From IMG/VR virus record IMGVR_UViG_3300008262_000055: a stretch of DNA of 64,000 nucleotides. The stretch is one strand, 5' to 3'. The stretch is from a virus (Duplodnaviria; Caudoviricetes). The translations under genes were made by a program, and so were the position numbers. Of this stretch, positions 13,450 to 40,024 are shown piece by piece; positions within the stretch are counted from its first letter, which is position 1, and every line of letters begins with the position of its first letter. Under the pieces are notes generated by a model. The model was not told where the DNA came from and made no database searches. It saw only the letters and a program-made list of their open reading frames with translations.

Positions 13450-13712
13450 AATTATCTATTACTAAAAATAAAAATTTTATATCAGACTGTAAACGTTACG
13501 AAACTTTTATAAAAGAAACTAAAAGTTTAGAATTAGAAAAACTGTATAAAAGATTTTTATCTCAAGCTAAAAATATCGATGCTATCTCAGAATCTTTTGA
13601 ATTAATATCTAATGGTACTAGATTGAGTGAGGAACGAGCTCGATTAAAAAACATTAGAATAGAATTAGAAAAGAAAATTATATTGTTGAAAGAAAAGACT
13701 CGACAGACATAA
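13446..13712 (+). CDS. Hypothetical Lys/Glu-rich helical protein
   Basis: 88-aa ORF, ATGA-coupled; overlaps the hldD 3' end convergently. Confidence 0.65.
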   Translation: MKLSITKNKNFISDCKRYETFIKETKSLELEKLYKRFLSQAKNIDAISESFELISNGTRLSEERARLKNIRIELEKKIILLKEKTRQT

Positions 13713-14568
13713 ATTTATAGTCTCCTATTTTTTCAATTAATTTTGTGTTATCAGAGCAGGTATATCTCTGATATTGATTTATTAAATCTGTAGGAAATTC
13801 AATTTCTTCAATCGCAGCTGAATATTTTTTTGATATTAAATCAGCTACTTCACGGAAAGACACAGCAGTTCCTGTTCCTAAATTAAAGATTCCATTAAAA
13901 TTTTTATTTGAAGCTGTTAATTTTATGTTTACTATATCGTCAACACAGATAAAGTCTCTTTGAAAATTTTCACTGTTTTTAAAAATTTGTATCTTTCCCG
14001 TGTCTAAGGCCTGTTGACTAAATTTAGTAATAGGGCTTGCTTGATCTTTCTTGTGAATTTCATTTTTTCCATAGACATTAAAATATCTCCAACCTTGTAT
14101 GTTAGCATTGGGATAATCTAATAACGTAGAATACACATATTGATCAACTAACATCTTACTAGTAGCATACAATGACCTAGGGTTAAGAGGCTGTGATTCT
14201 ACAAATGTGTTGCTATCACCGTAGACTGATGCCGAACTAGCGTATGATAAAACAAAATTATTTCTTACAGCTTGGTCAACAAGCCAATAACTAGGCTGTA
14301 GATTGTATTGATCAATTTTATTTTGATCTCGTTCAGTAGTTGATGATATCGCACCTTCGTGAAATACAACATCAACTTTTAACCAATGATTCCAAATGCC
14401 ATAAAAATCCTGTGGAGATATAATTTCTGAAAATTTTAAATCCCTAAGATTGTTTTCTTTGTCTTTGTTTATATCATCAACAATTAAAATATCACTAATG
14501 GACCGACCATTTAGGCCTTTAACTATATTAGAACCTATTAATCCAGCACCGCCTGTGACTATAATCAT
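13678..14568 (-). CDS. hldD: ADP-L-glycero-D-manno-heptose 6-epimerase (start revised to 14568)
   Basis: IIVTGGAGLIG, HEGAISSTTE, YASSASVYG, YATSK, RYFNVYG..E.HK, RDFICVDD, GIFNLGTG: HldD/RfaD-specific SDR motifs. Confidence 0.9.
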   Translation of the reverse strand: MIIVTGGAGLIGSNIVKGLNGRSISDILIVDDINKDKENNLRDLKFSEIISPQDFYGIWNHWLKVDVVFHEGAISSTTERDQNKIDQYNLQPSYWLVDQAVRNNFVLSYASSASVYGDSNTFVESQPLNPRSLYATSKMLVDQYVYSTLLDYPNANIQGWRYFNVYGKNEIHKKDQASPITKFSQQALDTGKIQIFKNSENFQRDFICVDDIVNIKLTASNKNFNGIFNLGTGTAVSFREVADLISKKYSAAIEEIEFPTDLINQYQRYTCSDNTKLIEKIGDYKFMSVESFLSTI

Positions 14569-15053
14569 ACTAATGTAGTCTCCAACCATTGTTTACATTC
14601 TAACCAACTACAATAAATGTGCGACCTTCCGCCAGCACGGTCCCAGTCCTCGCAGTTAGATTTGCGATCGTCTATTAAGATATCGCCTGGCGAACAACGG
14701 ACCCATTTATCAAAACTATACGGCCCAAGAAATACAGGTATATCTGGAAAATGTTTGTGTGCCCAGAATACTTTATCTTGTGGTGCCCACGGCATATCGT
14801 TGCCTTTAGGGATAGCACTTAAGAAATATAATCCTGCGTTGTTATTATGTCTATAATTTCTACACCACTCAACTAACTCGTATGCTCCTTCTTTCACTGG
14901 CAACTTACTATACATACGCTGATCATTTTTTAATTTTTGCCAAGTCGTGTCTGGTAGTATATCGCCGTCTTTGAATAACGGTTCATTGAGATATTCTCTA
15001 GCGTAGCCAAACCAATCTGCTACTACATCGTCCATGTCTAGATAGATATTCAT
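14565..15053 (-). CDS. HAD-superfamily phosphatase (NT5C / 5'(3')-nucleotidase-like)
   Basis: IYLDMDDVVAD (motif I), FLSA (II), DKVFW (III), ILIDDRKSN (IV). Confidence 0.8.
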   Translation of the reverse strand: MNIYLDMDDVVADWFGYAREYLNEPLFKDGDILPDTTWQKLKNDQRMYSKLPVKEGAYELVEWCRNYRHNNNAGLYFLSAIPKGNDMPWAPQDKVFWAHKHFPDIPVFLGPYSFDKWVRCSPGDILIDDRKSNCEDWDRAGGRSHIYCSWLECKQWLETTLV

Positions 15054-15430
15054 TACTCTGCTTTCTTTTGACTATCACCAGGAGCAAGTCTGTAATTGTC
15101 TTCTACAGAATCAGCGGTACTGACTTCAAATACCATAGCACCGTCTGTCATTGCTTCTAGCTGATGAGGTTGTAACGGAGGATTATGCCACGTGTCTCCT
15201 TCGTTTAATTCTTGCTCATATATCTTGGCATCTTTAGTATCAATCCAACGCAATTTAAATTTGCCTGAATTTACAAACCAAGTTTCATCTTTTTTATTAT
15301 GAAAGTGCATAGAAAATTTATTTCCTGCTTTTTCAAACACTAATATTTTTCCGCAATAGTAATCGTTGGTGGCCCATATAATTTCAAAACCCCAACCCTT
15401 GTTTACTTTTCCAGTTAATCTTTCTGTCAT
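15053..15430 (-). CDS. Cupin, sugar (phosphate) isomerase-like
   Basis: KGWG.E..W, SMHFHNKKDETW (cupin motif 1), NPPLQPHQL (motif 2), FEVST; mannose-6-P isomerase / lyxose isomerase-like. Confidence 0.8.
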   Translation of the reverse strand: MTERLTGKVNKGWGFEIIWATNDYYCGKILVFEKAGNKFSMHFHNKKDETWFVNSGKFKLRWIDTKDAKIYEQELNEGDTWHNPPLQPHQLEAMTDGAMVFEVSTADSVEDNYRLAPGDSQKKAE

Positions 15431-16176
15431 TTTATTTCCTCTAATGTAGGTGCGTAATTTCCCAAATGTTGAACAGTAATACTAGCGGCCTTAACGGCAA
15501 ACTTTATAGCGTCATTGATATTTTTTGTATCACACCATTTGTATGCTAGGGCAGCTAAAAAAGTATCTCCAGCACCGCACACATCACTGACTTCTACAGC
15601 CGGTGCTGGATGATTAATATCATGATGTATAGCTGTTGCTCCTTTATCCCCCAGTGTTACTATTAATCCAGTACACTCGCTTTTAACTTTGCTGTATTCG
15701 GATTCGTTGATCTTTACCCAGGCTCCTTGTAATCGTTCTAAGTCTGTTTTCTTTGTATCTACAAATACAGGAATTTTAGTTTCAATTAGTTCCTCTATTA
15801 GCTTATAACTTACTGTTCCCTTGTTGTAATCGCTAACAACAATAGCATCGTATACAGGAGGAATGGCTGTCTCAAACTCTAAAGGCGTTGATACAACATC
15901 GTCGTCTATTCTTATTATGTGTTGTTTACTACGGAGGTCAATTAATCTAGTTTTTGTACCAGTTTCTCCGTGAAGGTAATTAATTTTACACCCTAGTGCT
16001 TCTAAATTACGTGCCACATTTCCTGCCATTCCTGGTTTAGTTTCTTCGTGACTAAACTTAAACACTGGCACAGGAGCTTCGGGACTAATTCTGTCCACAG
16101 ATCCGTATCTATATACGTCTAGACAGTTATCGCCTATCAGCAATATCTTGAATGATTTTAGTTGTTGAGTGTCCAT
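15427..16176 (-). CDS. hldA: PfkB-family heptose-7-phosphate kinase (HldA / RfaE domain I)
   Basis: IGDNCLDVY.YG...RISPEAPVPV, GMAGNVARNL, VSDYNKG, DVCGAGDTF. Confidence 0.88.
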   Translation of the reverse strand: MDTQQLKSFKILLIGDNCLDVYRYGSVDRISPEAPVPVFKFSHEETKPGMAGNVARNLEALGCKINYLHGETGTKTRLIDLRSKQHIIRIDDDVVSTPLEFETAIPPVYDAIVVSDYNKGTVSYKLIEELIETKIPVFVDTKKTDLERLQGAWVKINESEYSKVKSECTGLIVTLGDKGATAIHHDINHPAPAVEVSDVCGAGDTFLAALAYKWCDTKNINDAIKFAVKAASITVQHLGNYAPTLEEIK

Positions 16177-16522
16177 CTATTCTATCAAAAAATATAATTT
16201 CGTCGCAAACTTCTTGGCCTACAATAGGTTTGCCCATGTAATCGCTGCCCTTAACCATAGTGTCGCAGGCCGCAACAAGATTTATGAGTTCCAAATCAGT
16301 GTCGAATATCACAACTTCGTCAACTGCTTTTAGATTTTTGAGCATGTATGCTCGATATCGTTGATTGTTGATTGGTCGAGAAGACCCTTTTAGGCGGCGG
16401 ACACGATCGTCTGAATCAATGCCAACCATAAGATGATCTCCTAAACTTTTAGCATAGTTTAGAAGATCTATATGTCCCGGATGTAATATATCAAAAGAAC
16501 CGTTAACAAAAATCAGACTCAT
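16127..16522 (-). CDS. hldC: Heptose-1-phosphate nucleotidyltransferase (HldC / RfaE domain II; start revised to ATG 16522)
   Basis: NGSFDILHPGH (HIGH-type), VGIDSD..VRRLKG..RPIN, VDEVVIFD, GHSTT. Confidence 0.82.
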   Translation of the reverse strand: MSLIFVNGSFDILHPGHIDLLNYAKSLGDHLMVGIDSDDRVRRLKGSSRPINNQRYRAYMLKNLKAVDEVVIFDTDLELINLVAACDTMVKGSDYMGKPIVGQEVCDEIIFFDRIDGHSTTKIIQDIADRR

Positions 16523-16556
16523 GCTGTAATTATACAGCAAAGAGTCTCTTTGTCAA
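16523..16556 (-). promoter_or_regulatory. Consensus sigma70 promoter overlapped by two palindromes; probably leaderless transcript
   Basis: TTGACA (16556-16551) - 16 nt - TATAAT (16534-16529) - 6 nt - ATG; palindromes at 16538-16552 and 16523-16538. Confidence 0.8.
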
Positions 16557-25167: not shown

Positions 25168-26736
25168 TTATAATCTACCAACTACAACTTCAATGACTCC
25201 AGAGACGCCATCAAAGTCTTCTAATGCTTTACCTATCACAGTGCCAATGCTAGGGTCTAGAGACGGTCTAGCATACCCATCGCCACCGCTGATCAACATA
25301 TCACCTTTTCTAATGTTGCCCCTAACTTTACAAGGAACACGCCCCTGTAGTGCTATTGCTACTACATTGTCGCCTTTTAAATCAGTGTTCATTAAGTAAG
25401 CAGGGTTTGTAGAAACAACTCCGGCTATTCTGCGAGTTGAATCTTGGGCTAGAGTTACTTCTTTGTCTCCGCCAAATTCTAAAACAGTTCCAGGCTCGTA
25501 GGCACAATCGGCTAGATATCTTTCAGCCAAGTCCGCCCATCTAGCTGTAGTTGCTGTGACATTTAATGTGCTGGTTGCTACTTCTAACGTTACGCCGGAG
25601 CTGGCATATAAACTTTGTCCAGTAATTGGATCTGTTCCTTCAGCAATAACCATAGGATATATGCCGTCAAGAACTTCTGAAACAATAATTTCAGTAGCGG
25701 TTCCGCCAGTTCCGCCACCTCCTCCAGAACTTCCTGTATTGGTTATTGTTATCCTATCGCTGGTAGCATTAGTAGTAATAGCTATTCCTGAGCCTGCCAC
25801 AAAAGTCAGTGTGTCTGATGCCGAATCTGCTCTAATAGTTGACTGTCCTGCTACGCTAACAACACCAAACGCATTAGCTGATGTTCCACCACCTGTTCCA
25901 CCGCCAGAGCTTGATAGAGTAATACTTCTATTTGAAGCATTAGTGGAAATGGTCATTCCTGAGCCAGCAATTAATGTTAAATTATCATTTAATATTATAC
26001 TATCAACATCAGCCTCGCCCGATACAGAAATAGTTCCAAACGATTTAAGTTCATTACCGCCCACGGTTGTGCCGTCGGGTAGCTCAATAGCCCCGTTTCC
26101 ATTATTAGATATTACAGCACCGCCAAGGTCTATACCATTACTAAGATATAGGTCTCTAAATCGCTTTAGAGCAATACCAACATCAAATGTTCCGCTAGAG
26201 GTTGGTGTAAGAGTTCTGTCAATAGCAGAAAGATTGGCATTACTACTACCACCGCTGCCGCCATCTGGAATGTCACCGCCACCTCCACCACCGCCTAAGT
26301 CTTCTTCGTCAACCAAATATGTTAAAGGGACAGGTCTTTCAAGATCAGTTAAGGTAGCAAAATATTGAGCAAAGTAGATAGCACGTACACCTTCGTAGCC
26401 TTCAATAATTGGTGATAATTTTAAACTTAGATAGCTGTCATTAACTGTGGCAGAAATTGTAATTAACGGATCATCTATGGAGGCACGACCGTAGACTGTG
26501 TAAGTAGCTTGATCAGGTCTAGCTACTACAAGAATAGACATTGTTTCTTTTTTCTGGGAATCGTATTCTACAGAAATTATATAATTTGCGGCAGCAAAAT
26601 CGCCCACATACCAACGATCAATTTCGGTGTCTTGAAAGATTTGACGCCAGGGTCCTCTATTATAGAAGTTTACTCCGTTTTTTAGAAACAGAGTATTTTT
26701 TACACCAGTGCCAAAGTATTTGGTAAAATCAGTCAT
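25168..26736 (-). CDS. Tail fibre/appendage with C-terminal intramolecular-chaperone autocleavage domain (Peptidase_G2-like)
   Basis: WADLAERY...YEPGTVL...AGVVSTNPAYLMN...ALQGRVPCKV.G...KGD.L...GTVIGKALE; two internal F..(I/V)SV.G...D.LT..AGSG repeats; TAAATA at 26758-26763. Confidence 0.75.
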   Translation of the reverse strand: MTDFTKYFGTGVKNTLFLKNGVNFYNRGPWRQIFQDTEIDRWYVGDFAAANYIISVEYDSQKKETMSILVVARPDQATYTVYGRASIDDPLITISATVNDSYLSLKLSPIIEGYEGVRAIYFAQYFATLTDLERPVPLTYLVDEEDLGGGGGGGDIPDGGSGGSSNANLSAIDRTLTPTSSGTFDVGIALKRFRDLYLSNGIDLGGAVISNNGNGAIELPDGTTVGGNELKSFGTISVSGEADVDSIILNDNLTLIAGSGMTISTNASNRSITLSSSGGGTGGGTSANAFGVVSVAGQSTIRADSASDTLTFVAGSGIAITTNATSDRITITNTGSSGGGGGTGGTATEIIVSEVLDGIYPMVIAEGTDPITGQSLYASSGVTLEVATSTLNVTATTARWADLAERYLADCAYEPGTVLEFGGDKEVTLAQDSTRRIAGVVSTNPAYLMNTDLKGDNVVAIALQGRVPCKVRGNIRKGDMLISGGDGYARPSLDPSIGTVIGKALEDFDGVSGVIEVVVGRL

Positions 26737-26782: not shown

Positions 26783-26807
26783 AAAAACCCCCTAAAAAGG
26801 GGGTTTT
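26783..26807 (-). terminator. Rho-independent terminator after the carbamoyltransferase gene
   Basis: AAAACCCCCT-TTTT-AGGGGGTTTT-T. Confidence 0.8.
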
Positions 26808-26808
26808 G

Positions 26809-28617
26809 TTAGCTATTAGCAATCTTGATCAGCTTACCGTATTCGGGTAAAAATAGATATTCTATATCACTTTTAACCAATGTTTCAATAGCATCGTCTA
26901 GAGTTTCAACTAGCGGATCGCCACCTAGGTTAAAGCTGGTATTAAAAATAATAGGAATTCCTGTTTGATCGTAAAATTCTTTGATAAGATCGTAATAGTG
27001 AGGATTTTGTTCACGCTTTACGCTCTGTATTCTACAAGTTCCGTCAACGTGTATGATACTAGGAATCTTTTCAGCTATACCTGGCTTACAATTTACAGCG
27101 TACATCATGTGTGGTGTTTCGTCCATGCCACGTAAATCAAACCACTCATGTACATGCTCGTGTATAATACTGCCAGCGAACGGGCGGAAATATTCTCTAC
27201 GCTTTACAGTGTTAACAAAATCTTTGCCATCTGGAAATGTAGGATCAAATAGCACACTGCGATTACCCAATGCTCTAGGACCGTTTTCTGAACGTCCTTG
27301 GAATATTGTAACAATATTCTTTTCCCGCAACAATTTTACTACATCTTTATTAGTAGCATCTACAACTTCTCCGCCAGCATAAGATACTTTATCCAGTATC
27401 TCTCTTTCTGCGTAGGTATACTGCGGTCCTAGATATAGTGTGTCTAATTTATGCTTTTCACGACTATCTGCCATAGCATGCCAAAACATTAATCCAGCAC
27501 CCATGGCTGTTCCGGCATCATTACTGATAGGTTCAACATAGATATTAATACCTTCATCTTTTAACTGTTCAAGATAATGATAATTTGCCACACAATTTAG
27601 GCCATATCCACCGCTGATAACAACATTCTTCTTGCCACTGATTTCTACAGCTTTACGGATTAATCTAACTACTTGTTCTTGTGTTTGTGTTTGACACGCA
27701 TAGGCAAGATCTCTACGACTTTGGAGTTTAGTAGTATCTTCACCTTCTTGCGGCAACTCGTCAAGATAGTCAAATAAAGCACTATTAACTACTGAAGAAG
27801 AAGGATAGGCAGGCACGATTAGATTTCGATTAGACAACGGAACCTTCGAAGTAAAATCAAACAACTTAGGAATCTTATCGTTGGGTTTACCGTAGGGAAA
27901 TAATCCCATGGTTTTTCCTGCTTCGATAGATGAGAACCCACAATATTCGGTGACAGCCTCGTAGGTTTTAACTATACCTGCTCTATCCGAAAGCCATGCT
28001 TCATGGAACTCACCTGCTTCTCCAAATTGATCTGAAGGGCATTTGTCCATGTATGTGCCAGCAACAGCTTCGCGAGCACCATAATTTTTATAAAGAGTCT
28101 TAAACTGTGAAGGGTATCCGCAGTCAATAATTGACTCTACTTCCCACACCCATAAAGGTTCGTTGCCGTACATTAATTGAATAAATGTACCAGCACCGTC
28201 AACAATCAGTGCTACCGCATCATCAAAACCACTGCGATAAAACGCACAGGCAGCGTGAAGCTTGTGATGCATAAAACTTAAATCGACAACCTGAGGATGA
28301 TTGTGATTGTCTTCTTTGCGACTAATCAATCCTAGCTTACGTGCTAGACCAGTGTAAATATCATCGCCACTGAAATCAATTCTAGCAGCAGTATCTGTTA
28401 ATTTCTGTGTATGTGCTACAACTAGATAATCTAACTTATCGGTGTATTCTAAAATTTTAACCATTGAAGCTAGCGGGCCGCCATCGTATTTTTGACGGGT
28501 TAATCTTTCTTCTTCAATAGAAAAAACAATTTCTCCGTCTTTGAATAAACATACACCAGCATTGTGGCCACGTGCTATGGCTGCGATCCAACCGGAATTA
28601 AGTTTAGGTTCTGTCAT
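26809..28617 (-). CDS. O-carbamoyltransferase (NodU/CmcH/TobZ family)
   Basis: GHNAGVCLFKDGE...EEERLTR, HHKLHA, DGAG, GKTMGL.PYG, GGYGLNCVAN, GPRALGNRS, VKRREYFRPFA, HVDGTCRIQ, NTSFN. Confidence 0.93.
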   Translation of the reverse strand: MTEPKLNSGWIAAIARGHNAGVCLFKDGEIVFSIEEERLTRQKYDGGPLASMVKILEYTDKLDYLVVAHTQKLTDTAARIDFSGDDIYTGLARKLGLISRKEDNHNHPQVVDLSFMHHKLHAACAFYRSGFDDAVALIVDGAGTFIQLMYGNEPLWVWEVESIIDCGYPSQFKTLYKNYGAREAVAGTYMDKCPSDQFGEAGEFHEAWLSDRAGIVKTYEAVTEYCGFSSIEAGKTMGLFPYGKPNDKIPKLFDFTSKVPLSNRNLIVPAYPSSSVVNSALFDYLDELPQEGEDTTKLQSRRDLAYACQTQTQEQVVRLIRKAVEISGKKNVVISGGYGLNCVANYHYLEQLKDEGINIYVEPISNDAGTAMGAGLMFWHAMADSREKHKLDTLYLGPQYTYAEREILDKVSYAGGEVVDATNKDVVKLLREKNIVTIFQGRSENGPRALGNRSVLFDPTFPDGKDFVNTVKRREYFRPFAGSIIHEHVHEWFDLRGMDETPHMMYAVNCKPGIAEKIPSIIHVDGTCRIQSVKREQNPHYYDLIKEFYDQTGIPIIFNTSFNLGGDPLVETLDDAIETLVKSDIEYLFLPEYGKLIKIANS

Positions 28618-29555
28618 TTTTTGTGTTTTCCTTGTACGGCTTCTATAATATAATTTTGTATTTCTGGAGTCATAGTCATTATAGGTTCGTGTTTTCTATC
28701 AATGCGTTCATCCATGGTAATTCTAATAGGACTATATTCACGGGTTTCTTCTCCCATATCTAAAATTGTAAATGTTTTACAATCTGGGTAAGAAACATTA
28801 ATAGGATATGTTGACCCAAATAGCACAGTTGAAGGTTTGTCTACACAATAGGCCAAATGCTGTCCTAAGCTGTCACAGCCTAAGAAATGATCTGCGTATT
28901 TGATAATTGCTGCCCATTGACGCATAGAAACATTTTCTGGCATGGCGATTTCATCTTTGAATTTTTCATCAGTAAAATCAATTTTAAACTCACTCATTAA
29001 AATTACACCAAATTCTTTTTCCTGTAATCTTTTAATTAGAGCTTTTGTATCTTTAAATTCTATGCTTCGACTAGTTGAGTCAACTAACGAATCGTCAACT
29101 ACTTGTATTCCGCGACCAAAAGGTTGGAATACTACAATTTTACTTTTCTTTAATTGTTTTTTAACATCGCCAATCAGCTTGCGACCTGTTAATAGCTCGT
29201 CTTTGCTGAGAATCAATGTAGGCTTAGGCAATGCTCTAATACCTTTTTTATTAATTTCAATATCGAACGCCTGTGCTATAGAACATTTTTGATTATAGTA
29301 TTCCCATATCCTGTAGGGTTCTGGGCTAACAATATCTCGATCTTTGATCTTTTCTAAGAAAAGATGTTTATGCCATACATCATACGTTCTAGCATCGAGG
29401 GTGGGGTGACCTTTAAAAACATCTGTGCCGCCCTCGCAGATGATGATGAAATCCTTGTCTCCGGATTCCTGTTCGTATTTTTCAAATGCGGGTATTGAGC
29501 ATAACATACGGCCCGCACCACCGTTTAAAAAAAATGCTTTAGAGCGTTGTTCCAT
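28614..29555 (-). CDS. Glycosyltransferase family 9 (ADP-heptose heptosyltransferase-like)
   Basis: N-terminal GGAGRMLCSIPA; C-terminal AIIKYADHFLGCDSLGQHLAYCVDKPSTVLFGST matches the GT9 'D.G..H.A.A...P...LFG.T' pattern; ATGA-coupled to the carbamoyltransferase. Confidence 0.78.
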   Translation of the reverse strand: MEQRSKAFFLNGGAGRMLCSIPAFEKYEQESGDKDFIIICEGGTDVFKGHPTLDARTYDVWHKHLFLEKIKDRDIVSPEPYRIWEYYNQKCSIAQAFDIEINKKGIRALPKPTLILSKDELLTGRKLIGDVKKQLKKSKIVVFQPFGRGIQVVDDSLVDSTSRSIEFKDTKALIKRLQEKEFGVILMSEFKIDFTDEKFKDEIAMPENVSMRQWAAIIKYADHFLGCDSLGQHLAYCVDKPSTVLFGSTYPINVSYPDCKTFTILDMGEETREYSPIRITMDERIDRKHEPIMTMTPEIQNYIIEAVQGKHKK

Positions 29556-29557
29556 TT

Positions 29558-29636
29558 AAACTCCAAGAAAATAGGTTCTGTCTTACTATGTATCACTACA
29601 ATAATAACACAGAACCTAGTCTTGGTTCAAGAGTTT
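29558..29636 (-). promoter_or_regulatory. Long RBS-sequestering hairpin containing a sigma70-type promoter
   Basis: Arms AAACTC/GAGTTT, CAAGA/TCTTG, TAGGTTCTGT/ACAGAACCTA, TTATTA/TAGTAA, TGTA/TACA, GTGA loop; TTGAAC (29630-29625) - 18 nt - TATTAT (29606-29601) with TG extension. Confidence 0.7.
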
Positions 29637-29638
29637 TT

Positions 29639-30286
29639 TTAAATTAAAGTTGGTAAGTTACTTGGGAATGGAATTTTCCAATGATCAACACCGGCGTAAA
29701 GTCTTTCCAAATCACGAAGCCATGCTATGTGAGCAGCAAAGGCTGTTCGGTCTTCATCTGTATAATCATTTATTTGTAGACTTTGTTCAATAGCTGTAGC
29801 TATATTTCTATAGTTTTCAATAAGACTTTGTTTAGTAACAGCGTGTAATCTATATTCTGGTCCTACAAATTGATTATTGATATATTTTAACGATTGGCCA
29901 TAAAAACATTGTCCAATTGATCCAGTATTATCATCGTAATGATATGTGTAGTTCCATTCGTTGCCGTCAGCATCGACTAAATCTGTCGAATAATCAGCAA
30001 CATCGCCAGTTTCATATGTATTCAACAAATAAGCGGCAGGAAACGGATGTTCGTTAGCGTCAATCAAATAAAATGTTGTTGCTGGATCATCATCTACAAG
30101 ATTATCAAAATCAATCTCTGCCAAAGACTCTCCTCTTCTAGCAATATATTTGATTTCGCCTGTAGCATCAATGACACAGATAGCGAAGTAACGAGGTCCA
30201 GTATAGACCGCATTCTGTACCTTGTTTAGAGCCGTGGTGTTTTTGTATGGCTCATCTGGTAATAAAAATGTAAAATTTTTTCTCAT
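29639..30286 (-). CDS. Probable tail-fibre assembly chaperone
   Basis: C-terminal DRTAFAAHIAWLRDL...WKIPFP resembles the phage tail-assembly chaperone 'YRqaLRDlP...WP' pattern; directly downstream of the Cys-rich genes; TAAATA at 30303-30308. Confidence 0.5.
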   Translation of the reverse strand: MRKNFTFLLPDEPYKNTTALNKVQNAVYTGPRYFAICVIDATGEIKYIARRGESLAEIDFDNLVDDDPATTFYLIDANEHPFPAAYLLNTYETGDVADYSTDLVDADGNEWNYTYHYDDNTGSIGQCFYGQSLKYINNQFVGPEYRLHAVTKQSLIENYRNIATAIEQSLQINDYTDEDRTAFAAHIAWLRDLERLYAGVDHWKIPFPSNLPTLI

Positions 30287-30305: not shown

Positions 30306-31274
30306 TTATGTAAAGAATCTAATTCTAACAGCACCCCATCCGCCGCGACCAGCATGGTCACGAACCCCTGGACATGGGCTTGTTGGGTATCCACCTGTTG
30401 CTGGTGGTGCGTAGTGAATACAGCCCTGCATTTCATAACATCCGCATTTTCTATCTGATCTCCAGCAATAGTTCATAGGAATGCCGCCGGTGGGCGATCT
30501 ACGCAATGCTGAAAACGCATTTACTTCCTGCATTAACGGTTGACCTGACCAGTTTGAATGTCTGTTGTCATCTTCAGCACCAAACGCTGCTACGTTATAA
30601 GGTCCGCAACTATAAAATCCTGCCGGAGATGCTGTGTGATATTGAAAACAGCAAGGACACTGTGGTAAGCAACCAAAGAATACTGAACAACTGAAATGAC
30701 CACAACAGTTTGTGTCACCGCCGTAAGCACAAGCAATCCAAATACCGTTAAAATAATTACAGATAACACCGCAGTTATCGTTAAATGGTCCTGTAAAACA
30801 GTGTGATTGGTTAACAAAGCAACAGAACAATGATGTTCCTGTAGAGCACATACCGCGGCCACCTGCTCCGCCCTGGGCACAGATACAACCGTTTTGAGCA
30901 GCAGCACACTGAGTCCAACATACTCCAGTAGGATCTGAACAACCACGGAAACACAATGCGGAACTGTTACCACAACTGTTACCAATAGTACCTCTTACAA
31001 AATCGGTTGAACTAACACAAATTGTTTTTTTAGAATAAGCACCTGCGTTACCTGGAGTACCTCCACCGCAGCAGCACATCTGTGCTCCGGATCCGCCAGC
31101 ACCCCATACTTCAATTACTGCTCTACCAGTTGATGGAGGATTCCAACAAAACCCGTTACAAAAGTTTGTATACATGGTACCTGGTGTGAACACATAGATT
31201 CTGCCTGTTTCTAGGTTTTCCTCTACGCGACCAGTTGTTCTTGATCTTATTAAATTTTGAAACGATGTAGGCAT
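30306..31274 (-). CDS. Cys/Gly-rich fibre-tip-like protein, paralogue 1 (about 33 Cys)
   Basis: IEVWGAGGSGA.MCCCGGG.PGN.GAYSKK...GRGGWGAVRIRF glycine-rich domain. Confidence 0.75.
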   Translation of the reverse strand: MPTSFQNLIRSRTTGRVEENLETGRIYVFTPGTMYTNFCNGFCWNPPSTGRAVIEVWGAGGSGAQMCCCGGGTPGNAGAYSKKTICVSSTDFVRGTIGNSCGNSSALCFRGCSDPTGVCWTQCAAAQNGCICAQGGAGGRGMCSTGTSLFCCFVNQSHCFTGPFNDNCGVICNYFNGIWIACAYGGDTNCCGHFSCSVFFGCLPQCPCCFQYHTASPAGFYSCGPYNVAAFGAEDDNRHSNWSGQPLMQEVNAFSALRRSPTGGIPMNYCWRSDRKCGCYEMQGCIHYAPPATGGYPTSPCPGVRDHAGRGGWGAVRIRFFT

Positions 31275-31285
31275 TATTTTATCTC

Positions 31286-32281
31286 TTATAAATCTCTTAC
31301 TGTACCATCTTGTACGAATCGGATACGAATAGCACCATGGCCGCCACGATATGCGTGATCACGCACATCGCCGCATGGAAATGGTGGTAATCCTGGAAAC
31401 CCTGGCGGAACAAATGGTATACATCCGTTACCGTCATAACATCCGCAAGTTCTACCGCCAGTCCAACATGAGTGAGCACCGTCAACACCGCGACCTGGTT
31501 GGCGTCCTGCTACGTTTAACCCATATAAGAAACCATTTAGTGCCATTCCGCTCCAGCTAGAGTGGCCGCTATCGCCCTCATTAGTGTAGGTAATTTCCGC
31601 ACCGCAATCGCTGTAATATCCCGGTGGCGTTGCTACGTGGAAAAATGTAGAACATGGACAGCTTGGTGTACATCCAAAGAAAGTAGCACGGCTAAAACCG
31701 CCTCTTGCGTTAACATCGCCACCAAACGCATCAGCACAACATGATGCTGTACCTGTTCCGTAGTTACAGATAATTCCACAGTTGGCATTAAATGGACCAG
31801 TTCCGCAGAATCCGCCAGCTTGGAAACAGCACCACATTGATGTTCCTGTAGAACAGAAAGTAGTACCTCCGCGGCCACCTTGAGCACACATACATCCGTT
31901 AGTTGTTGTAGAACGCCAGCATACACCTGTGGGTTCTGAGCAACCTCGGAAACATAAATCGTTTGAATTGCCGCAGCTAAATCCAATAGTTCCTGTAATT
32001 AAGCAGCCAGAAGCTACACAGATAGTTTTCTTAGAGTAAGCTCCAGGATTACCTGGAATACCGCCACCGCAGCAGCACATCTTAGCACCACTACCGCCAG
32101 CACCCCAAATTTCAACTGTAGCAAGTCCGCTAGCAGGAGCAATCCAACAAACTTCGCCGCACATCTTTGTTCGGACATTACCATGAGTGTATGCCCAAAT
32201 TCGACCTTGTTCGAGATTTTCTTCTTCGAATGCGATAAACGGTAATTTTGCCTGAACAAGACCTTTAAATGATGTTGGCAT
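31286..32281 (-). CDS. Cys/Gly-rich fibre-tip-like protein, paralogue 2 (about 30 Cys)
   Basis: Same motifs and same MPTSF start. Confidence 0.75.
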   Translation of the reverse strand: MPTSFKGLVQAKLPFIAFEEENLEQGRIWAYTHGNVRTKMCGEVCWIAPASGLATVEIWGAGGSGAKMCCCGGGIPGNPGAYSKKTICVASGCLITGTIGFSCGNSNDLCFRGCSEPTGVCWRSTTTNGCMCAQGGRGGTTFCSTGTSMWCCFQAGGFCGTGPFNANCGIICNYGTGTASCCADAFGGDVNARGGFSRATFFGCTPSCPCSTFFHVATPPGYYSDCGAEITYTNEGDSGHSSWSGMALNGFLYGLNVAGRQPGRGVDGAHSCWTGGRTCGCYDGNGCIPFVPPGFPGLPPFPCGDVRDHAYRGGHGAIRIRFVQDGTVRDL

Positions 32282-32282
32282 C

Positions 32283-33251
32283 TTATTGTCCCTCTATAAA
32301 TCTAATACGGATAGCACCGTGGCCGCCGCGACGACCGTGGTCGCGAACTTCAGGACATGGATTAGGAGGAGTTCCAGGATAACCTGGACCTACACCTGTG
32401 TAGCATCCTTCGTTGTCATAACAGCCGCAGCCGCCGCCAAATCCCCAACAGTACGACCAGGGGATGCCGTGTGTTGGTTGTCTTGACTGTGCGTTTAATG
32501 CTGATTGATGTTGATGGGCACCTTGGCCCGACCAGTTTGAGAATTCGTTGCTGTTTTCTGTACCAAATACTACAACTCCGCCGCATTTAGAAACATATCC
32601 CGGTGGTGTTGCTACGTGGTAGGTAAAAGAACAGATGCATGGGCCTTGACAGCCTAAAAATGCTGTACAGCTAAATCCGCCGCAACGGTTAACGTCGCCG
32701 CCGTAACCACAGGCAATCCAAATTCCACCAAAGTAATTACAGATCGTTCCGCAGTTATCGTTGTATGGGCCTCGAGAACAATATCCGTTAGCAGCAAAAC
32801 AGCAATATAATGATGTTCCTGTAGTACAGAAACTTCTACCGCCTGCTCCACCCTGGGCACATAAGCAGCCCGACGCCCCGCAGTTTCCTGTCCATGTTAC
32901 ACCAGTTGCGTCTGAGCAACCTCGGAAACAGATAGCATCTGCGTTACCGCAGCTAAATCCCACTGCTCCGCAGACATAACAGCCCGATTCTACTCGGATA
33001 GCTTTCTTTGAATAAGCACCTGCGTTGCCAGGAAGTCCTCCTCCGCAGCAGCACATACGAGCACCACTACCGCCAGCACCCCAAATTTCTATAACTGCTG
33101 TACCTCTAGCAGGGGCTTTCCAACAAATTTGATAGTTGGTATAGTTGTTGCCCGGTGTATATAGCCAGATTCTGCCACGCTCGAGATGTTCCTCGGTAGC
33201 GTAGATACCATCGCCTTTGATCTGAACTAAATTCCTAAATGATGTTGGCAT
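32283..33251 (-). CDS. Cys/Gly-rich fibre-tip-like protein, paralogue 3 (about 30 Cys)
   Basis: Same motifs and same MPTSF start. Confidence 0.75.
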   Translation of the reverse strand: MPTSFRNLVQIKGDGIYATEEHLERGRIWLYTPGNNYTNYQICWKAPARGTAVIEIWGAGGSGARMCCCGGGLPGNAGAYSKKAIRVESGCYVCGAVGFSCGNADAICFRGCSDATGVTWTGNCGASGCLCAQGGAGGRSFCTTGTSLYCCFAANGYCSRGPYNDNCGTICNYFGGIWIACGYGGDVNRCGGFSCTAFLGCQGPCICSFTYHVATPPGYVSKCGGVVVFGTENSNEFSNWSGQGAHQHQSALNAQSRQPTHGIPWSYCWGFGGGCGCYDNEGCYTGVGPGYPGTPPNPCPEVRDHGRRGGHGAIRIRFIEGQ

Positions 33252-33961: not shown

Positions 33962-36900
33962 TTAACTATGTAAAAATAAGTTCATAGCCACCGGTACTCC
34001 ATTAATACCACCAATGAAATTCATCGGAGCAAGCACGTTAATGCGGCCGCCTGTGGTGGTTGTAATGTAGTCATTAGCTACAAATATCTGACCTGCTGTG
34101 AGAGTATTTACGTTCAGGGTACTGGAACCTGAACCAATTTGTGAAGCAATATAAGCCTTAACTGCTCTCTGAGTAGGTATAACTGAATCTGAATCCTGTG
34201 TAAAGAACGGATCTGTACTGAATTCAGTGATTGTAGCACCCCCTGTGCCCAATTCTACCGAGCCCAAGCTGAGCTCTTGTAGTCCTGCAATGTTAAACGC
34301 ATCTGCGTTTAGTGTAGCAGTACCTGTACTTTGTTCGACTGTGAATAATCCACCAACTCGGAAGTTACCGTCCTGGTCTGTTGATGTGTAGAACACACGA
34401 CCACCATTGCTTTCCACAGTTTCATTGGTTGGAATTGGATCAATCAGTGGCAATCCTGGATAATTTGTACTGGTGAAATTACCAGTACCAATATCTAAGA
34501 AGTCATGGCCTGTTAGTCGAACCTGTGAATAACGTATCCTAATTTCAAAAGGATCTTCGTGTGGCACAGCTTCGGGTATTTCAATAGGTGGGCTTACCTG
34601 TAATCTAGCTGTATAAGGCCCGGTTCCTAGTAGTTGTGTAACAGTGACTAATTTATAGAACTGTCCAGGTAAACTGTTAAATTCAACGTTTGATCCTGGT
34701 ACCGGTATAGAATATAATCCCTTAACGTCAACATAGCTGCCATTTTGGAATATATCAGCATAACCATCTCCAACTACCGAACCTGTAGCCACTTCCCAAT
34801 CAGCACCCCTAGTGATAAATGTAGGATTCGCTAGTACACCGTTGCCTACTCGCACTGTATGTGGTGCTTCGTAGGTATTATTAGGATCTGTGACAGTTAA
34901 CGCAGGCGGAGTTACTGAACTATAACCGCTACCTGGTTCTATTACTCTAAATTCCACAATCTTAGTATCAGCAACTCTAGCACGTACATAAGCTCTTGTT
35001 CCGGTTACCAATGCTGCCGGACCTGCTACTGTTGACTGCGGAATAATCCATAATGGAGATCCGTTTGGATTGCCAAATATTGGTCTTCCTGTAGTAGTAT
35101 AAGCAGCAGTACCCTGTGTCCAAGTACGGCCATCCTGTGATTTCCAATGTGCTGTAGAAGAAGCAGATCCTGTTGCTACAAAGGTACCTTGCCCGTATCC
35201 TACTTTACCAACAGTGATAGTGTTTAATACTCCGGTCCAACTAGTTCCATCGTTGCTAACAGCAATATTAGATCCTGTAGAACTCACAGCCACAAACACA
35301 TTATTTCCATACGCAATACTGCTCCAGTCGGCGAGCCCTGTAAGAGCAGCCGAAGTCCATGTAATACCGTCTAAACTATATGCCGAGGTTACTGATCCAG
35401 GAGCACCTGCCGTAGAAACAGCAAAGAATCTGCCTTTACCGTAGGTAATGCTTGGCCAATTTGTACGTGTAGGTAAATTATTAGCACCGTTAGCCCAAGT
35501 TGTACCATTAGTAGATACTAGTGGAGTGGCAGAATCCGCTCTAACAGCAACAAAACGACCTCCACCAAACGCTACAGATGTTACATCACTAATTTGCGGT
35601 ATAGTTGCTGAGTTCCAAGTTACTCCGCCGTCTGTACTATAAGCTGCTCCTGTGGCAGCATTTCCTAATGCTACAACGTAGGAAACTCCGCCAATATCCC
35701 CACTGGCTATCGCTGTCCATATGTTGATTGATGGTAGAGTAGATGTTTGCCAAGTTGTACCATTGGTTGAATAATATGCTGTGTTAGTTGATACTCCGCC
35801 ATTCGCCAGTAGTATTACAAAATTACCACCCCTGCCTTTGCCTTCATAGGAAAATGTTAATATTTCTCCGACTACTAACCCTGGAGTTGAATCTACGGTT
35901 TCGATACGTATTCTAAGATCATTGGCAGGTGTTGTTCCTCCTAATGAGGTGCCTAAGATGGTCAACAAATTATTATTAACATAATTTTGTCCGGCTTGAT
36001 TTAAAGTAACAGTATATGTTTCACCATTTCTAGTTATATTAAATGTAGCACCGGTTCCAGCACCGCCTGAAGCAGACACATTGGTAAATGTTTGTCTTAC
36101 ATTGGCATAAACAGCATCTGATTGACCAACTACTGAGCCTCCTGAGACGCTAGGAGAACTTTCGGTAGGTGCTGCTACTGTTACTCTTGGTTCAATGATG
36201 TATAATGATGAGGGATCTGGTGCTACAATAGCTGTACCTGGCACAACATGATCCCATCCACTAGTGCCAGTTGACTCTCTATAAACTCCTGCTAGTTTAG
36301 AACCAGCATTGTAGGTGTTGATATAACCATATTGACCTACACCAGTTCCGGATTGGATATAAATTCTCATACCAATATAAGCTGAACTGGTTTGATCGTC
36401 AGTGGCTGCTAGGGTAATTGAACTAGTTGTTCCACTTTGAGCAACGTTTTCTGAACTTAGATAATCAAGGCCGCCAAATTGTCCTGAACTGTCGTCATTG
36501 TCTAACAATCTAACTTCAAAAATACCGCCATCTCTAGTCTCATTACCAACAGTAGTAAATGATGTTCCTGGTCCGTTAAATGTAAACGTGCCTGAGGTAT
36601 AATCAATACCAGCATTTTGATATTCAACACGTAGTACCTGTTGACCGTTGGTTAATACTTTTGTGATCAGTGCTTCTTCGTATCGGTTATTAACTATACC
36701 TGTGATTGCTGTTTCTGTAGCATCAACCCCTTCTGCTACACAACCGTATGTTCCGTATGAGCTGTTACCGTTAGTAGCACGTATCTTACCACCGTCTTCT
36801 GCTAGATACCCAATATGTCCGTAATATCCAAACACAGATACAAGTTCTGTTCTACCTAGATTGGTACACCATACACCAATACCGTCTGAAATTACTTGTG

Positions 36901-39900
36901 TAAAATCGTTACTGACGATAGATTTATTACCGCCGTTGTGTAGATCTCCATCGATCTTACATCCCACACAGGCTGTACCAAATGTTGTTACGTTTTGTAC
37001 ATAACAAGATCTTGTGGTAATCCATACTCGTTGGTCATTAGGGCCCCAGCCTGGATCAAGACTTACGTAAGCACCGGCTGTTGGTCTATAAGTTCCATAT
37101 GCGTTAGGTCCAACTAATGTTCCTGTTAATCCCTGTACAGTCATATTTCTAACACCTGTACTGTTTCTAACCAAGAACATGTTTTCTGTTATAGAACCAG
37201 TCACGCCATTAACATACCATTCTGCTGATGTTAAAGTTCTATAATTACCAGTGTAGACTAAATCAAACTTGATAGCATCGATGTATTCGCCAACATCTCT
37301 AGCACAGGCAGCAAGACTGTAAGTGTAAGATGGGTAAGTTAACGCAATGTACGCATGAACTTCAGCAATAATAAATTGTCTATTCAATTCTAGTTGACGC
37401 ACCGCCGCATACACATTATAACTTGATGCTGCAGCATTTGAGCCAGCCATTGTAGGAGCACTACCTACTGCGTTTAGATAAAAATCAACATGATCATAGG
37501 CATTTTGAACTAGTGTTTCAACTAGCGTGCCTTCTGTAGCAGTTGCGAAAGGCTTAGTTTGACTCTGTGTTTCAGTATTTGGATTTGTACCAGTTGTTGT
37601 TTTTGTTACAGTTGTACCTTCTACAATATCAGCAATAATAGCTTTAATTCGTGTAAGAGCATCTAAACTCTTAGGAACATCAGTAGCATCAATCTGACTA
37701 GCAGCAGGTCTAATGTTAGTAGAACGTAGTTCGTCGCCTACTACCGCAGTGTCTACAGGAACAATAATAGGTAGCGTTTCATAGAATACACCAGTCTTAA
37801 CTAGTATAGTTCTTTGAGGTTTGACTTCTGCTCCCACACTTCCTAATGTACCGCTAGAAATTGCTGTAGTAATTAGTGTTTTTAGATTAGCGATTTCTGT
37901 AAATGAAGAATCTTCAGCTACATAATCAGTGTCAATAATCTGTAAAATTCTATCATTAACAGGAACACTGTTAGTAACTTGATAATTTGTTCCAGGTGCT
38001 GTGTTGAGTAATACACAGGTGTTAACTAAAGTATTGACAGCATAGTTTATGGCTGCTACTGTTTCTTCTTTTTGTCCTAGGCCGTAGAAAGTTGAAGCAT
38101 TTGTAACATATTCAACCGCAGCCTGTCTAGATCTTACGTTTCCGCCGTGACGGATATCCCATAACAATGCGTCAATGATTAAACCTACATCACGCTCGCA
38201 CTTGGTTGTATCATAAGAAAAACTAGATACAAACGGTGAAATGTTGTTTGTGATTTGATAGTTAATCCACTGTACAGTTTCCCTCTGTACAAACTGTCTA
38301 TTAATTTCTAATATAAAAGCAGCTTCAGGATTTCGTGTCCCTTTTTCAATTTGATCAGCTGCGTATCTTACAGTTCTCCATGGTTTATCTAGTGTGATAC
38401 CGTATGTCGGTGCCACTTCATCAGTTCCGTCAAGACTTACATAATACAACTGATCAACTTCGCCCCAATATTTCCACTCGGGTGCTGCGGCACTATTGAC
38501 AACTAGAACTTGTCCATCTGAACCAATAGGTAATCTAGTTGGTCCAGCACCGCCGTAATAAACAAGATCGCCCTGTGTAGTTAATACCGACGATTCTTGA
38601 CCGTTGGCTAATAGATTCCAGTATGTTCCTGAAATGTCTACGTCTGGTCTGTTTGTTGCTGTAGCAGATGTGTGTGCTAATACACAGATATAACTGTTAG
38701 GTCCATAACGAACAGCATCACCTAGTACGTAACCATAACCGTTAGCCCATGTTCCTAACCAACGAATGCCCGGATTTAATTGTTCCCAATAGGTTAGATT
38801 AGGTGGTTTCTGATTGTTATTATCTTCTATAGCAACATAGGTGTAACCGCTGAGTCTTACTACGTCTCCAACTTTATAGTTGGTAGAACCTGACCAGTCC
38901 TGTTGAAATTTAAATGCTGTGGTAAACAGATCCCAATTCTGAGCACCTGTGACTGCCTCTGTTGGTTTGATATTACTATGGTTAGTGACTGCTACATACG
39001 CATATCCACCATAGGTAACAATGTCACCAGGCTGATAAACACTTGACGAATTCCAACTGTTTTCAAATTGTAATCCTTCTAGGAATTGTGCCCAGTAACC
39101 CGAATCTTCATCTTGTTCAAATGTTCTTGATACACTAGAAGTATGTTTTTGTAAACAGATGTAGACACCGTTACCAGTCTTAACAAGATCGTTTACTTTA
39201 TAATTTTGATCTACAGGATCCCACGCACCTAAGTATTCAACACCTTGGTTGAAATAATCCCACTTGCTTTGATCTGCTTCAAGACCCAGTGTAAAGGTTG
39301 CTGCGGCAGGGTGTCCTTCATTACATACATACGTAGTTCCGCCAAAAGAAACTACATCATTAATTTTATATCGAGTTGACGGAGCCCAAGGACCTTTCCA
39401 GTCAAACGCTTCTGAGAACTGATCCCATTTATTAATATCTGCCTTTTGACCTGCGGTTAGTCTATCTAAACCTTCAAGTCCCATTGCGGCAGTTGGAGCA
39501 GATATGTGGCCTAGATTACAGAGATATGTGTTGCCGCCGTACTTGACAATATCGTTAAGTCTATATCTGGTGTCAGTGGTCCAGTCACCTCGCCATTCAA
39601 ATCCCTCAGCAAACTGATCCCATTTAGACTGTGTACTATCGCCCAAGTCAAGGTCTACTTCAAGGCCATCGCTGGCGTTAGCAGCAGATGTATGACCTAC
39701 CAAACAGATGTATAGCTGTCCGCCGTATTTGACTATGTCGTTGACAAAGTATTCTGTGTCGACCGTCCAGTCACCTCTCCATGCTTGTCCATCGCTGGCT
39801 TGATTCCAACGTGCTGGGAAGTTATCCGCATCTACATAGAAATTTGAATCAGCTGTATGCCCAATTACGCAGATGTAAACTTTACCGTTTACTCGAACTA

Positions 39901-39982: not shown

Positions 39983-40024
39983 CGATTACTCCGATCTTCG
40001 ATACCATATTTATCTAATATGTTT

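Follow-up and report, generated by a model that had tools for sequence, protein, structure and literature searches.

What do two overlapping phage genes modify when one encodes a protein with a heptosyltransferase-like fold, the other an O-carbamoyltransferase, and both lie within a fibre gene cassette? The pair occupies positions 26809 to 29555 on the minus strand of the virus record IMGVR_UViG_3300008262_000055, which was analyzed as one stretch of 64,000 nucleotides, hereafter called the window. A preliminary description of this DNA had read the genes as a GT9 heptosyltransferase and a NodU/CmcH carbamoyltransferase that, together with an ADP-heptose operon, make up a carbamoyl-heptose modification system. 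We find such a heptose-plus-carbamoyl module to be well supported; the folds, the intact carbamoyltransferase motifs, the conserved donor-site residues, the gene coupling, the synteny and the co-occurrence are all observed directly. Genomic context favors virion fibre or adhesin protein as the place where the carbamoyl-heptose is put, a reading that we hold tentatively, at a little short of an even chance.

The pair itself is already known. Its homologs were catalogued in cyanomyoviruses as T4-GC 302 (hypothetical) and T4-GC 303 (Nol-like carbamoyltransferase) beside the "lipopolysaccharide (LPS) genes" T4-GC 304-308 (Sullivan et al. 2010, PMC3037559), and they also appear as phrog_8954 and phrog_1601, with no function assigned to the pair in the cyanophage catalogue. 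JGI pipelines label many relatives of the first gene "ADP-heptose:LPS heptosyltransferase". What is new is the combination of a GT9 fold that keeps the heptose site and has an altered base position, strict coupling to the carbamoyltransferase, a cassette of adhesin, chaperone and fibre genes, and a spread into one lineage of freshwater jumbo phages.

Results

A coupled gene pair with its own terminator

At the level of the sequence, the preliminary description was accurate: the window holds two coupled minus-strand open reading frames (ORFs) followed by a terminator.

28614..29555, minus strand: glycosyltransferase gene (GT), 313 aa, phrog_8954, cyanophage T4-GC 302 family, GT9-fold glycosyltransferase-like
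26809..28617, minus strand: carbamoyltransferase gene (CT), 602 aa, phrog_1601, T4-GC 303, TobZ/NodU/CmcH-type O-carbamoyltransferase
26784..26807, minus strand: intrinsic terminator of the GT-CT unit, AAAACCCCC-TTTTT-AGGGGGTTTT, then a T-rich tail

The stop codon of GT and the start codon of CT share an ATGA at 28617-28614, which locates the overlap reported earlier. The terminator that had been predicted for the pair is a G+C-rich hairpin of 10 bp with a T-run at 26807-26784, immediately past the CT stop codon; terminator-like sites number 14 in the region, compared with 7.7 expected. GT and CT probably constitute one glycan-tailoring unit. RNA-library contigs from two freshwater studies span parts of both genes at 98-99% identity, although such contigs give no start, strand or level, and DNA carry-over is possible.

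The carbamoyltransferase

Judged by its sequence, CT is a full-length, intact O-carbamoyltransferase of the NodU/CmcH/TobZ family, in agreement with its earlier assignment. It matches both Pfam domains of such enzymes, Carbam_trans_C (PF16861) with 193.6 bits and Carbam_trans_N (PF02543) with 97.3 bits. Its best solved relative in the PDB is 7xb6 (1e-58), an entry for which a literature search yielded no paper, and further matches are TobZ (2.6e-46, over residues 219-590 and an N-terminal stretch), GdmN and the novobiocin enzyme. The alignment with TobZ spans both the Kae1-like N-terminal and the YrdC-like C-terminal domain. Residues H117, H121, D140 and D367 of CT align with the H-x3-H, DG and D-x-G metal-site motifs of TobZ, and the YrdC-like/carbamoyl-AMP motifs GPRALGNRS, FRPFA, HVDGT-R-Q and NTSFN are all present; we take the roles of these positions to be those of their TobZ counterparts.

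CT therefore has the same two-domain build, metal ligands and carbamoyl-AMP motifs as TobZ, NovN, GdmN and NodU. It differs from them in two respects. It is not a NodU orthologue, since it scores 137.7 bits against the equivalog NF041651, for which the cut-off is 1000, and its substrate-binding N-terminal part (residues 1-200) aligns poorly to known O-carbamoyltransferases.

The GT9-fold protein

Taken singly, the GT sequence places itself only at the margin of known families. It scores 22.9 bits against Pfam Glyco_transf_9 (PF01075, cut-off 22) over the donor domain only and 23.9 bits against the NCBIfam LPS heptosyltransferase equivalogs (WaaC/WaaF/WaaQ, cut-offs 170-467), and a single-sequence search of the PDB gave no match (E 0.81). 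A search of 1.8 billion representatives yielded a family of 408 clusters, of which 77 full-length members were aligned. The family profile reached GT9 chains in the PDB at E 0.013-0.6, and 37 of the 77 members match GT9 at E<=0.01 and essentially no other family. An AlphaFold2 model of GT was built from the family alignment, with a predicted local distance difference test score (pLDDT) of 96. When this model was searched with Foldseek, the top matches were the GT9 entries 3tov, TibC, WaaF and WaaC together with PNSB1, a GT9-fold subunit of the NADH dehydrogenase-like (NDH) complex, all at E ~1e-9, and matches to Swiss-Prot models agree with a GT9 fold. An exhaustive VIA-align comparison over 48,161 chains gave Z scores of 23.0 (3tov), 20.8 (WaaF), 19.6 (TibC), 19.1 (WaaC) and 18.8 (PNSB1) over residues 3-313, thereby covering both domains, while the best GT-B family other than GT9 reached a Z of only 11.5.

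The donor site of GT can be compared with that of the LPS heptosyltransferases residue by residue. When the GT profile was aligned with E. coli WaaC and WaaF using hhalign, the donor domain aligned and the acceptor (N-terminal) domain was unalignable. D228-S229-L-G-Q-H233 of GT was placed on D261-T262-G-L-S-H266 of WaaC, and the R163-S region was placed on the K-R-W stretch of WaaF. In WaaC (HepI), the heptose hydroxyls are bonded by K192, D261 and H266, and a strictly conserved Asp13 serves as the base (bioRxiv 10.1101/2021.06.16.448588). No member of the GT family departs from D228 or H233, R163 is present in 76 of the 77 members, and the set formed by D228, S229, H233, R163 and Q144-P-x-G is invariant or nearly so across these diverse proteins, which argues for a working nucleotide-sugar site. 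Heptose would be the donor sugar, a proposal that the kept heptose-contact residues and the co-occurrence of hldA, hldC and hldD support indirectly.

The catalytic position is altered. An ungapped register sets G-A-G-R16-M-L-C-S-I-P22-A23 of GT against S-M-G-D13-V-L-H-T-L-P19-A20 of WaaC and puts an Arg on the catalytic Asp, the equivalence of Arg16 and Asp13 being based on motif spacing and predicted secondary structure rather than on residue-level superposition. The N-terminal motif reads N11-G-G-A-G-R16 in GT and [DN]-G-G-x-G-R in the family, including such distant members as those of Vibrio phage K479 and Aeromonas phage HJ05 and a GT8 fusion protein; the catalytic column holds R in 72 of 77 members, K in 3 and another residue in 2. 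Because Arg replaces the catalytic Asp, we assign GT to a divergent, apparently phage-specific clade that is GT9 by its modelled fold and its donor site and is not a canonical LPS heptosyltransferase. The earlier designation of the protein as a GT9 heptosyltransferase is thus kept as regards the fold and the heptose-contact residues and given up as regards a canonical enzyme, considering the Arg in place of Asp13 and the unalignable acceptor domain.

The bacterial autotransporter heptosyltransferases (BAHT) TibC and AAH, which take ADP-heptose as donor and modify surface adhesin proteins in the cytoplasm, share the GT9 fold with GT. They differ from it in possessing the catalytic Asp and an N-terminal iron-finger extension of ~90 residues; GT starts at beta-1 and aligns with TibC residues 90-391 only. 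To our knowledge, no carbamoylation of BAHT products has been described.

Linkage of the pair to ADP-heptose genes

The donor sugar could be supplied by the phage itself, since the window also encodes the following.

13678..16522, minus strand: ADP-heptose operon, comprising HldC-like (ATG at 16522), HldA-like, cupin, NT5C-like haloacid dehalogenase (HAD) and HldD genes, assigned with Pfam and NCBIfam
16529..16556, minus strand: sigma70 promoter of the heptose operon, TTGACA-16-TATAAT, 12 of 12 consensus positions

A five-gene, sigma70-driven ADP-heptose operon about 10 kb away had been described before, and it is indeed found 10.3 kb from the CT stop codon, with structural genes between. HldC, HldA and HldD are clear best NCBIfam matches, though under the equivalog cut-offs (TIGR02199, 124 bits; TIGR02198, 162 bits; TIGR02197, 272 bits, respectively). 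An SIS-type GmhA was not found in the window, the complete relatives or S-SSM7. The cupin is conserved, forming part of the module in S-SSM7 and S-CAM1 and at several metagenomic loci, and it and the NT5C-like HAD may stand in the places of the missing pathway enzymes, the cupin as isomerase. The earlier remark that ADP-heptose is sensed by ALPK1 has no bearing on an aquatic phage.

Some details of these genes deserve mention in their own right. The -10 hexamer ends 6 nt before the ATG at 16522 (region 16520-16556), so the operon mRNA would be leaderless or nearly so, and the mechanical ORF start, a TTG at 16540, falls within the promoter. In isolate genomes, the conserved cupin is variously annotated as "cysteine dioxygenase" or "nucleotidyltransferase", and the "phosphoheptose isomerase" ORFs (107-111 aa) in L001 (5977-6312, 5598-5999) and L003 (12916-13239, 13223-13576) have no Pfam support and no SIS domain; these annotations appear unreliable.

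The GT family comprises ~2,900 proteins in public metagenomes, and 458 stretches in IMG/VR encode relatives of GT. Locus counts throughout refer to the best 80 of these (57-99% GT identity). CT is adjacent to GT in all 80 loci, down to 57% GT identity. Among isolates, GT is found in seven species (S-CAM1, S-CAM3, Sf-FS3, S-SSM7, S-SSM6a, P-SSM2 and P-SSM5; 19 genome records), and it occurs in single-cell viral contigs as well. CT adjoins GT in every isolate genome that could be judged, and an HldA-like kinase is present in 19 of the 19 records, usually within a few kb. In S-CAM1 the order GT, CT, HldC, HldA, small ORF, cupin, HldD is contiguous, and GT-CT-HldC-HldA-cupin are likewise contiguous in the metagenomic locus L048. 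These linkages bear out the proposal that the pair and the ADP-heptose genes are one module.

The association is not universal. The kinase is on 12 of 18 long contigs, including two of the three rated complete (both 364 kb). Co-occurrence with GT across phages holds for CT (80 of 80 loci) and for the kinase in isolates (19 of 19 records), and the third contig rated complete, G006, is an exception as regards the kinase. S-SM2, P-TIM68, S-T4 and Sf-CH5/8 possess the kinase and lack this GT, S-RIM44 has CT without this GT, and the S-SSM7 cluster is interspersed with a halogenase, 2-oxoglutarate (2OG) oxygenases, a methyltransferase and a second CT.

CT and heptose genes were not found in five distant lineages of the GT family, and the Vibrio and Aeromonas phage members have no kinase match in the collection; Vibrio and Aeromonas hosts make ADP-heptose themselves. 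In three of these five lineages, GT has tail or fibre genes as neighbors, namely the gene of a tail-tip fibre protein in K479, the sheath module in HJ05 and tail-collar fibre genes in L006. In L010/L011, GT is beside an endolysin-like gene and a weak tube-like gene, and in L012 it lies within 8 kb of a weak tail-tube-initiator match. The L006 protein (5270-6946), encoded directly after three tail-collar fibre genes, is a fusion of GT8 and GT9-like domains, which points to a glycan with at least two sugars in this lineage.

The fibre cassette

The genes that flank the pair are conserved in the order Cys/Gly-rich paralogues, p215, GT, CT, p522.

30306..33251, minus strand: three tandem paralogues of 322-331 aa, 9-10% Cys and 15-19% Gly, phrog_4205, Gly_rich_2-like (Atlas)
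29639..30286, minus strand: p215, acidic, 215 aa, directly upstream of GT in 78 of 80 loci
25168..26736, minus strand: p522, fibre-like, with poly-Gly linkers, S/T-rich repeats and a C-terminal part resembling tail fibre phrogs

One to three copies of the Cys/Gly-rich paralogues are found upstream of GT in 73 of 80 loci (three copies in 61), and p522 is downstream of CT in 73 of 80. The paralogues are candidate adhesin-like acceptors. p215 is possibly a tail-fibre assembly chaperone; its Atlas feature similarity to Caudo_TAP/Phage_tail_APC clusters is 0.84-0.89, which serves as a lead only. The neighbors match phrogs of tail fibre and virion structural proteins. The pair had been said to lie amid Ser/Thr-rich fibre genes. 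The Ser+Thr content of the giant proteins is indeed 17-22.5% compared with 10-14% for the enzymes, but the immediate upstream neighbors of GT are Cys/Gly-rich and not Ser/Thr-rich.

Two of the giant proteins (2006 and 1835 aa, 33962-45532, minus strand) carry six CBM_5_12 carbohydrate-binding modules each, and the one at 46251-52586 carries a Laminin_G_3 domain. A gene of ~287 aa stands between GT and CT in ten loci (L060, at 11071-11934, L063, L069, L073, L081, L085, L092, L093, L096 and L100). Its Atlas look-alikes include, as a minority share and a lead only, DUF6071/GDSL-lipase clusters, and it may be a third tailoring enzyme.

The leader of the pair

Between p215 and GT lies a leader that we describe from its sequence and from comparison with relatives.

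29561..29630, minus strand: leader of the pair
29630-29625, minus strand: -35-like TTGAAC
29618-29609 and 29581-29572, minus strand: hairpin arms
29606-29601, minus strand: -10-like TATTAT, within the hairpin loop
29593-29587, minus strand: late-promoter-like ATACATA, within the hairpin loop
29571-29565, minus strand: T-run
29564-29561, minus strand: Shine-Dalgarno (SD) sequence GGAG

The stem covaries: among ~30 distinct relatives (loci L021-L100) there are more than 10 stem sequences, and pairing is kept. Some of the SD region is paired in the outer stem. In the relatives, the loop always has GATATATAAT, GATACATAGTA or a similar motif beside the 3' arm, the core being ATACATA in the GT leader, ATATATA or ATAAATA in relatives, and ATAAATA in S-CAM1. 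Most likely, the leader terminates transcription of the upstream gene and carries a promoter in its hairpin loop.

As to the kind of promoter, the sigma70-type element reported earlier does exist (TTGAAC-18-TATTAT, 29630-29601), but it is weak, with 9 of 12 consensus positions, and sigma70-like sites are not enriched in the region (24 compared with 29.3 expected). Outside the window clade, its -35/-10 pair is retained only in L030, L035, L036 and L043, and the late-type ATA-rich motif is more widely conserved than the sigma70 hexamers. On the minus strand of the window, 7 of 12 matches to ATAAATA are within 45 nt of a gene start, compared with 0.3 expected; the motif thus behaves as a T4-type late promoter core, which it likely is in this phage. 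The exact TATAAATA occurs once in the window compared with 8.8 expected, and the shorter ATAAATA is the informative motif. The seven starts, mostly of structural genes, have ATAAATA 10-45 nt upstream (minus strand 59201, 40013, 30309, 25162, 10385, 5095 and 1940). By similarity to this motif, GT-CT would be expressed late.

The T4 genes e, soc and 49 each have a late promoter within a hairpin, and on longer transcripts this hairpin masks the ribosome-binding site. Like them, the GT leader has a hairpin before the start that holds a promoter-like motif in its loop and base-pairs with some of the SD region. It differs in that the hairpin also resembles the intrinsic terminator of the upstream gene, and in being known from sequence.

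Identity of the phage

The DNA of the pair is ~66% identical to that of cyanophages, and GT and CT are homologous to the copies in S-CAM1, S-SSM7 and P-SSM2 (43-54% and 49-63% identity, respectively), with which they share the GT-CT adjacency, the link to heptose genes and the place beside fibre-like genes. We considered a marine cyanophage identity and rejected it. The closest relatives of the gp15 homologue (11621-13051, plus strand) are not those of cyanophages but those of the jumbo phages PA5oct, Sinorhizobium phage Phosso and Agrobacterium phage Atu_ph07 (~33% identity); psbA and hli are absent from the complete relatives (~364 kb); and the window DNA occurs in lake and freshwater metagenomes. 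The phage is a freshwater jumbo myovirus, not a Kyanoviridae cyanophage. Its pair differs from T4-GC 302/303 of the cyanophages in this respect, in that ~10 kb of structural genes split off the heptose operon, and in that the literature has the GT partner as an unannotated hypothetical.

Discussion

Given these results, we propose the following mechanism. The phage's own early operon would supply ADP-heptose, and the GT9-fold 313-aa enzyme would move the heptose to an acceptor other than the LPS inner core. The TobZ-type CT would convert carbamoyl phosphate and ATP to carbamoyl-AMP and then O-carbamoylate that heptose, giving a carbamoyl-heptose of the kind known on HepII of the Pseudomonas core. 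The acceptor would be the cassette's own fibre or adhesin, either p522 or the Cys/Gly-rich paralogues, and its modification would take place in the cytoplasm ahead of assembly; both this acceptor and the order of the two reactions are what we infer. GT-CT would be insulated from the upstream gene by the terminator hairpin and transcribed from the promoter in its loop, so that only transcripts started in the loop would escape termination and expose the ribosome-binding site.

The chemical precedent is the 7-O-carbamoyl-HepII of Pseudomonas, made by WapO (PMC8005017), which establishes that carbamoyl-heptose, there a 7-O-carbamoyl-L,D-heptose, exists in nature. In that system, WaaF and the putative carbamoyltransferase WapO (PA5005) are likewise a GT9-fold transferase using ADP-heptose and a NodU-family carbamoyltransferase (PMC8005017). 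The differences are that the Pseudomonas acceptor is Hep-Kdo2-lipid A (Kdo, 3-deoxy-D-manno-oct-2-ulosonic acid) and its glycosyltransferase has the catalytic Asp, whereas the acceptor domain of the phage protein is unrelated in sequence and carries the Arg. CT is likened to WapO by family only.

Four points lead us to rank the virion fibre first: the fibre cassette is conserved, three of the five distant members have tail or fibre neighbors, the motif in the leader loop is of the late type, and cyanobacterial LPS is without heptose and Kdo (PMC4515613). Several points weigh against this ranking. The Asp that deprotonates the acceptor hydroxyl in WaaC and TibC is Arg in 72 of 77 members, so Ser/Thr O-heptosylation by the textbook mechanism is not expected. 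We know of no experiment that shows heptose on any phage protein. Genes that change the host receptor also typically lie beside receptor-binding genes, and the late timing of the pair is read from motif similarity alone. The lineage is without psbA and hli, so the argument that the host has no heptose is not established for this phage. One relative of 364 kb has its kinase gene ~250 kb away from the pair, and the complete-rated 160-kb contig G006 (160,850 bp; locus L047) has GT-CT-cupin and no kinase, which ties the cupin more tightly to the pair than the kinase. In that locus, GT, CT and cupin are directly followed by neck protein, gp15 and terminase genes.

Of the alternatives, remodelling of the host envelope survives best, although we consider it unlikely. 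Carbamoyl-heptose would here be placed on a lipid-linked or outer-membrane glycan, perhaps the receptor of the adhesin, and would block superinfection or the sticking of progeny to debris. Receptor-masking genes often lie beside receptor-binding genes, as do T5 llp/oad and P22 gtr. GT9 enzymes normally act on lipid-anchored glycans, the Pseudomonas precedent being an LPS core, but the N-terminal acceptor domain of GT is unalignable to LPS heptosyltransferases; an Arg at the base position could, for its part, bind the phosphate or carboxylate of an anionic acceptor. Promoters point both ways, as the heptose operon has an early-type consensus promoter and the pair a sigma70-like one in the window clade, whereas the more widely conserved element is of the late type. 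The literature name "LPS genes" (PMC3037559) is in keeping with an envelope target, but cyanobacterial LPS is without heptose and Kdo (PMC4515613), which removes the canonical acceptor for the cyanophage members, and remodelling of the LPS core fits these poorly. The family also appears phage-specific, with only phage-type contexts seen in the phage and metagenomic loci that the analysis covered.

It is less probable still that GT is not a heptosyltransferase, being either a nucleotide-sugar-binding scaffold like PNSB1 or BimC or an enzyme using another donor, and that CT acts on another substrate for instance a protein thiol or a small molecule. The catalytic Asp is indeed missing, and GT9-fold proteins devoid of transferase activity are known (PNSB1, with a Z of 18.8, and BimC, which is annotated as inactive), but the near-invariance of the donor-site residues D228, S229, H233, R163 and Q144-P-x-G in 77 members and the tight linkage both to a sugar O-carbamoyltransferase and to the heptose pathway speak for a transferase. 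The mixed S-SSM7 cluster resembles natural-product tailoring, and S-RIM44 has its CT without this GT, both of which would suit another substrate for CT.

There is a slim chance that the change from Asp to Arg marks a phage-specific GT9 offshoot that uses a nucleophile needing no deprotonation (thiolate, carboxylate or phosphate), for example the cysteines of the upstream paralogues. An S-linked or unusually linked heptose would then be O-carbamoylated, which would amount to a novel type of virion post-translational modification, carried by receptor-binding proteins.

Lastly, the preliminary description had allowed for DNA modification, in which GT and CT would decorate a hydroxymethylated base of phage DNA. 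The T4 glucosyltransferases are GT-B enzymes. A phage NodU-family enzyme that carbamoylates 5-hydroxymethylcytosine in DNA, as cited in bioRxiv 10.1101/2024.12.05.627091, is a precedent, but we consider this explanation very improbable, as a PF00303 thymidylate-synthase-like hydroxymethylase was not found in the complete relatives G002, G004 and G006 or in S-SSM7 and S-CAM1, GT is near neutral (isoelectric point 6.7), and the pair lies in a fibre cassette and not among replication genes.

For two decades, the heptose genes of aquatic phages have been put down as "LPS genes" or as possible stuffer DNA, without an assigned transferase. That the hypothetical gene beside CT encodes a GT9-fold protein with the heptose site kept gives this pathway a concrete, testable end point. 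With the host surface as target, the pair would serve lytic aquatic phages to mask receptors. Should carbamoyl-heptose sit on virion adhesins, phages would have a new route to tune adsorption, stability or recognition, and a very abundant family would join the few known virion glycosylation systems.

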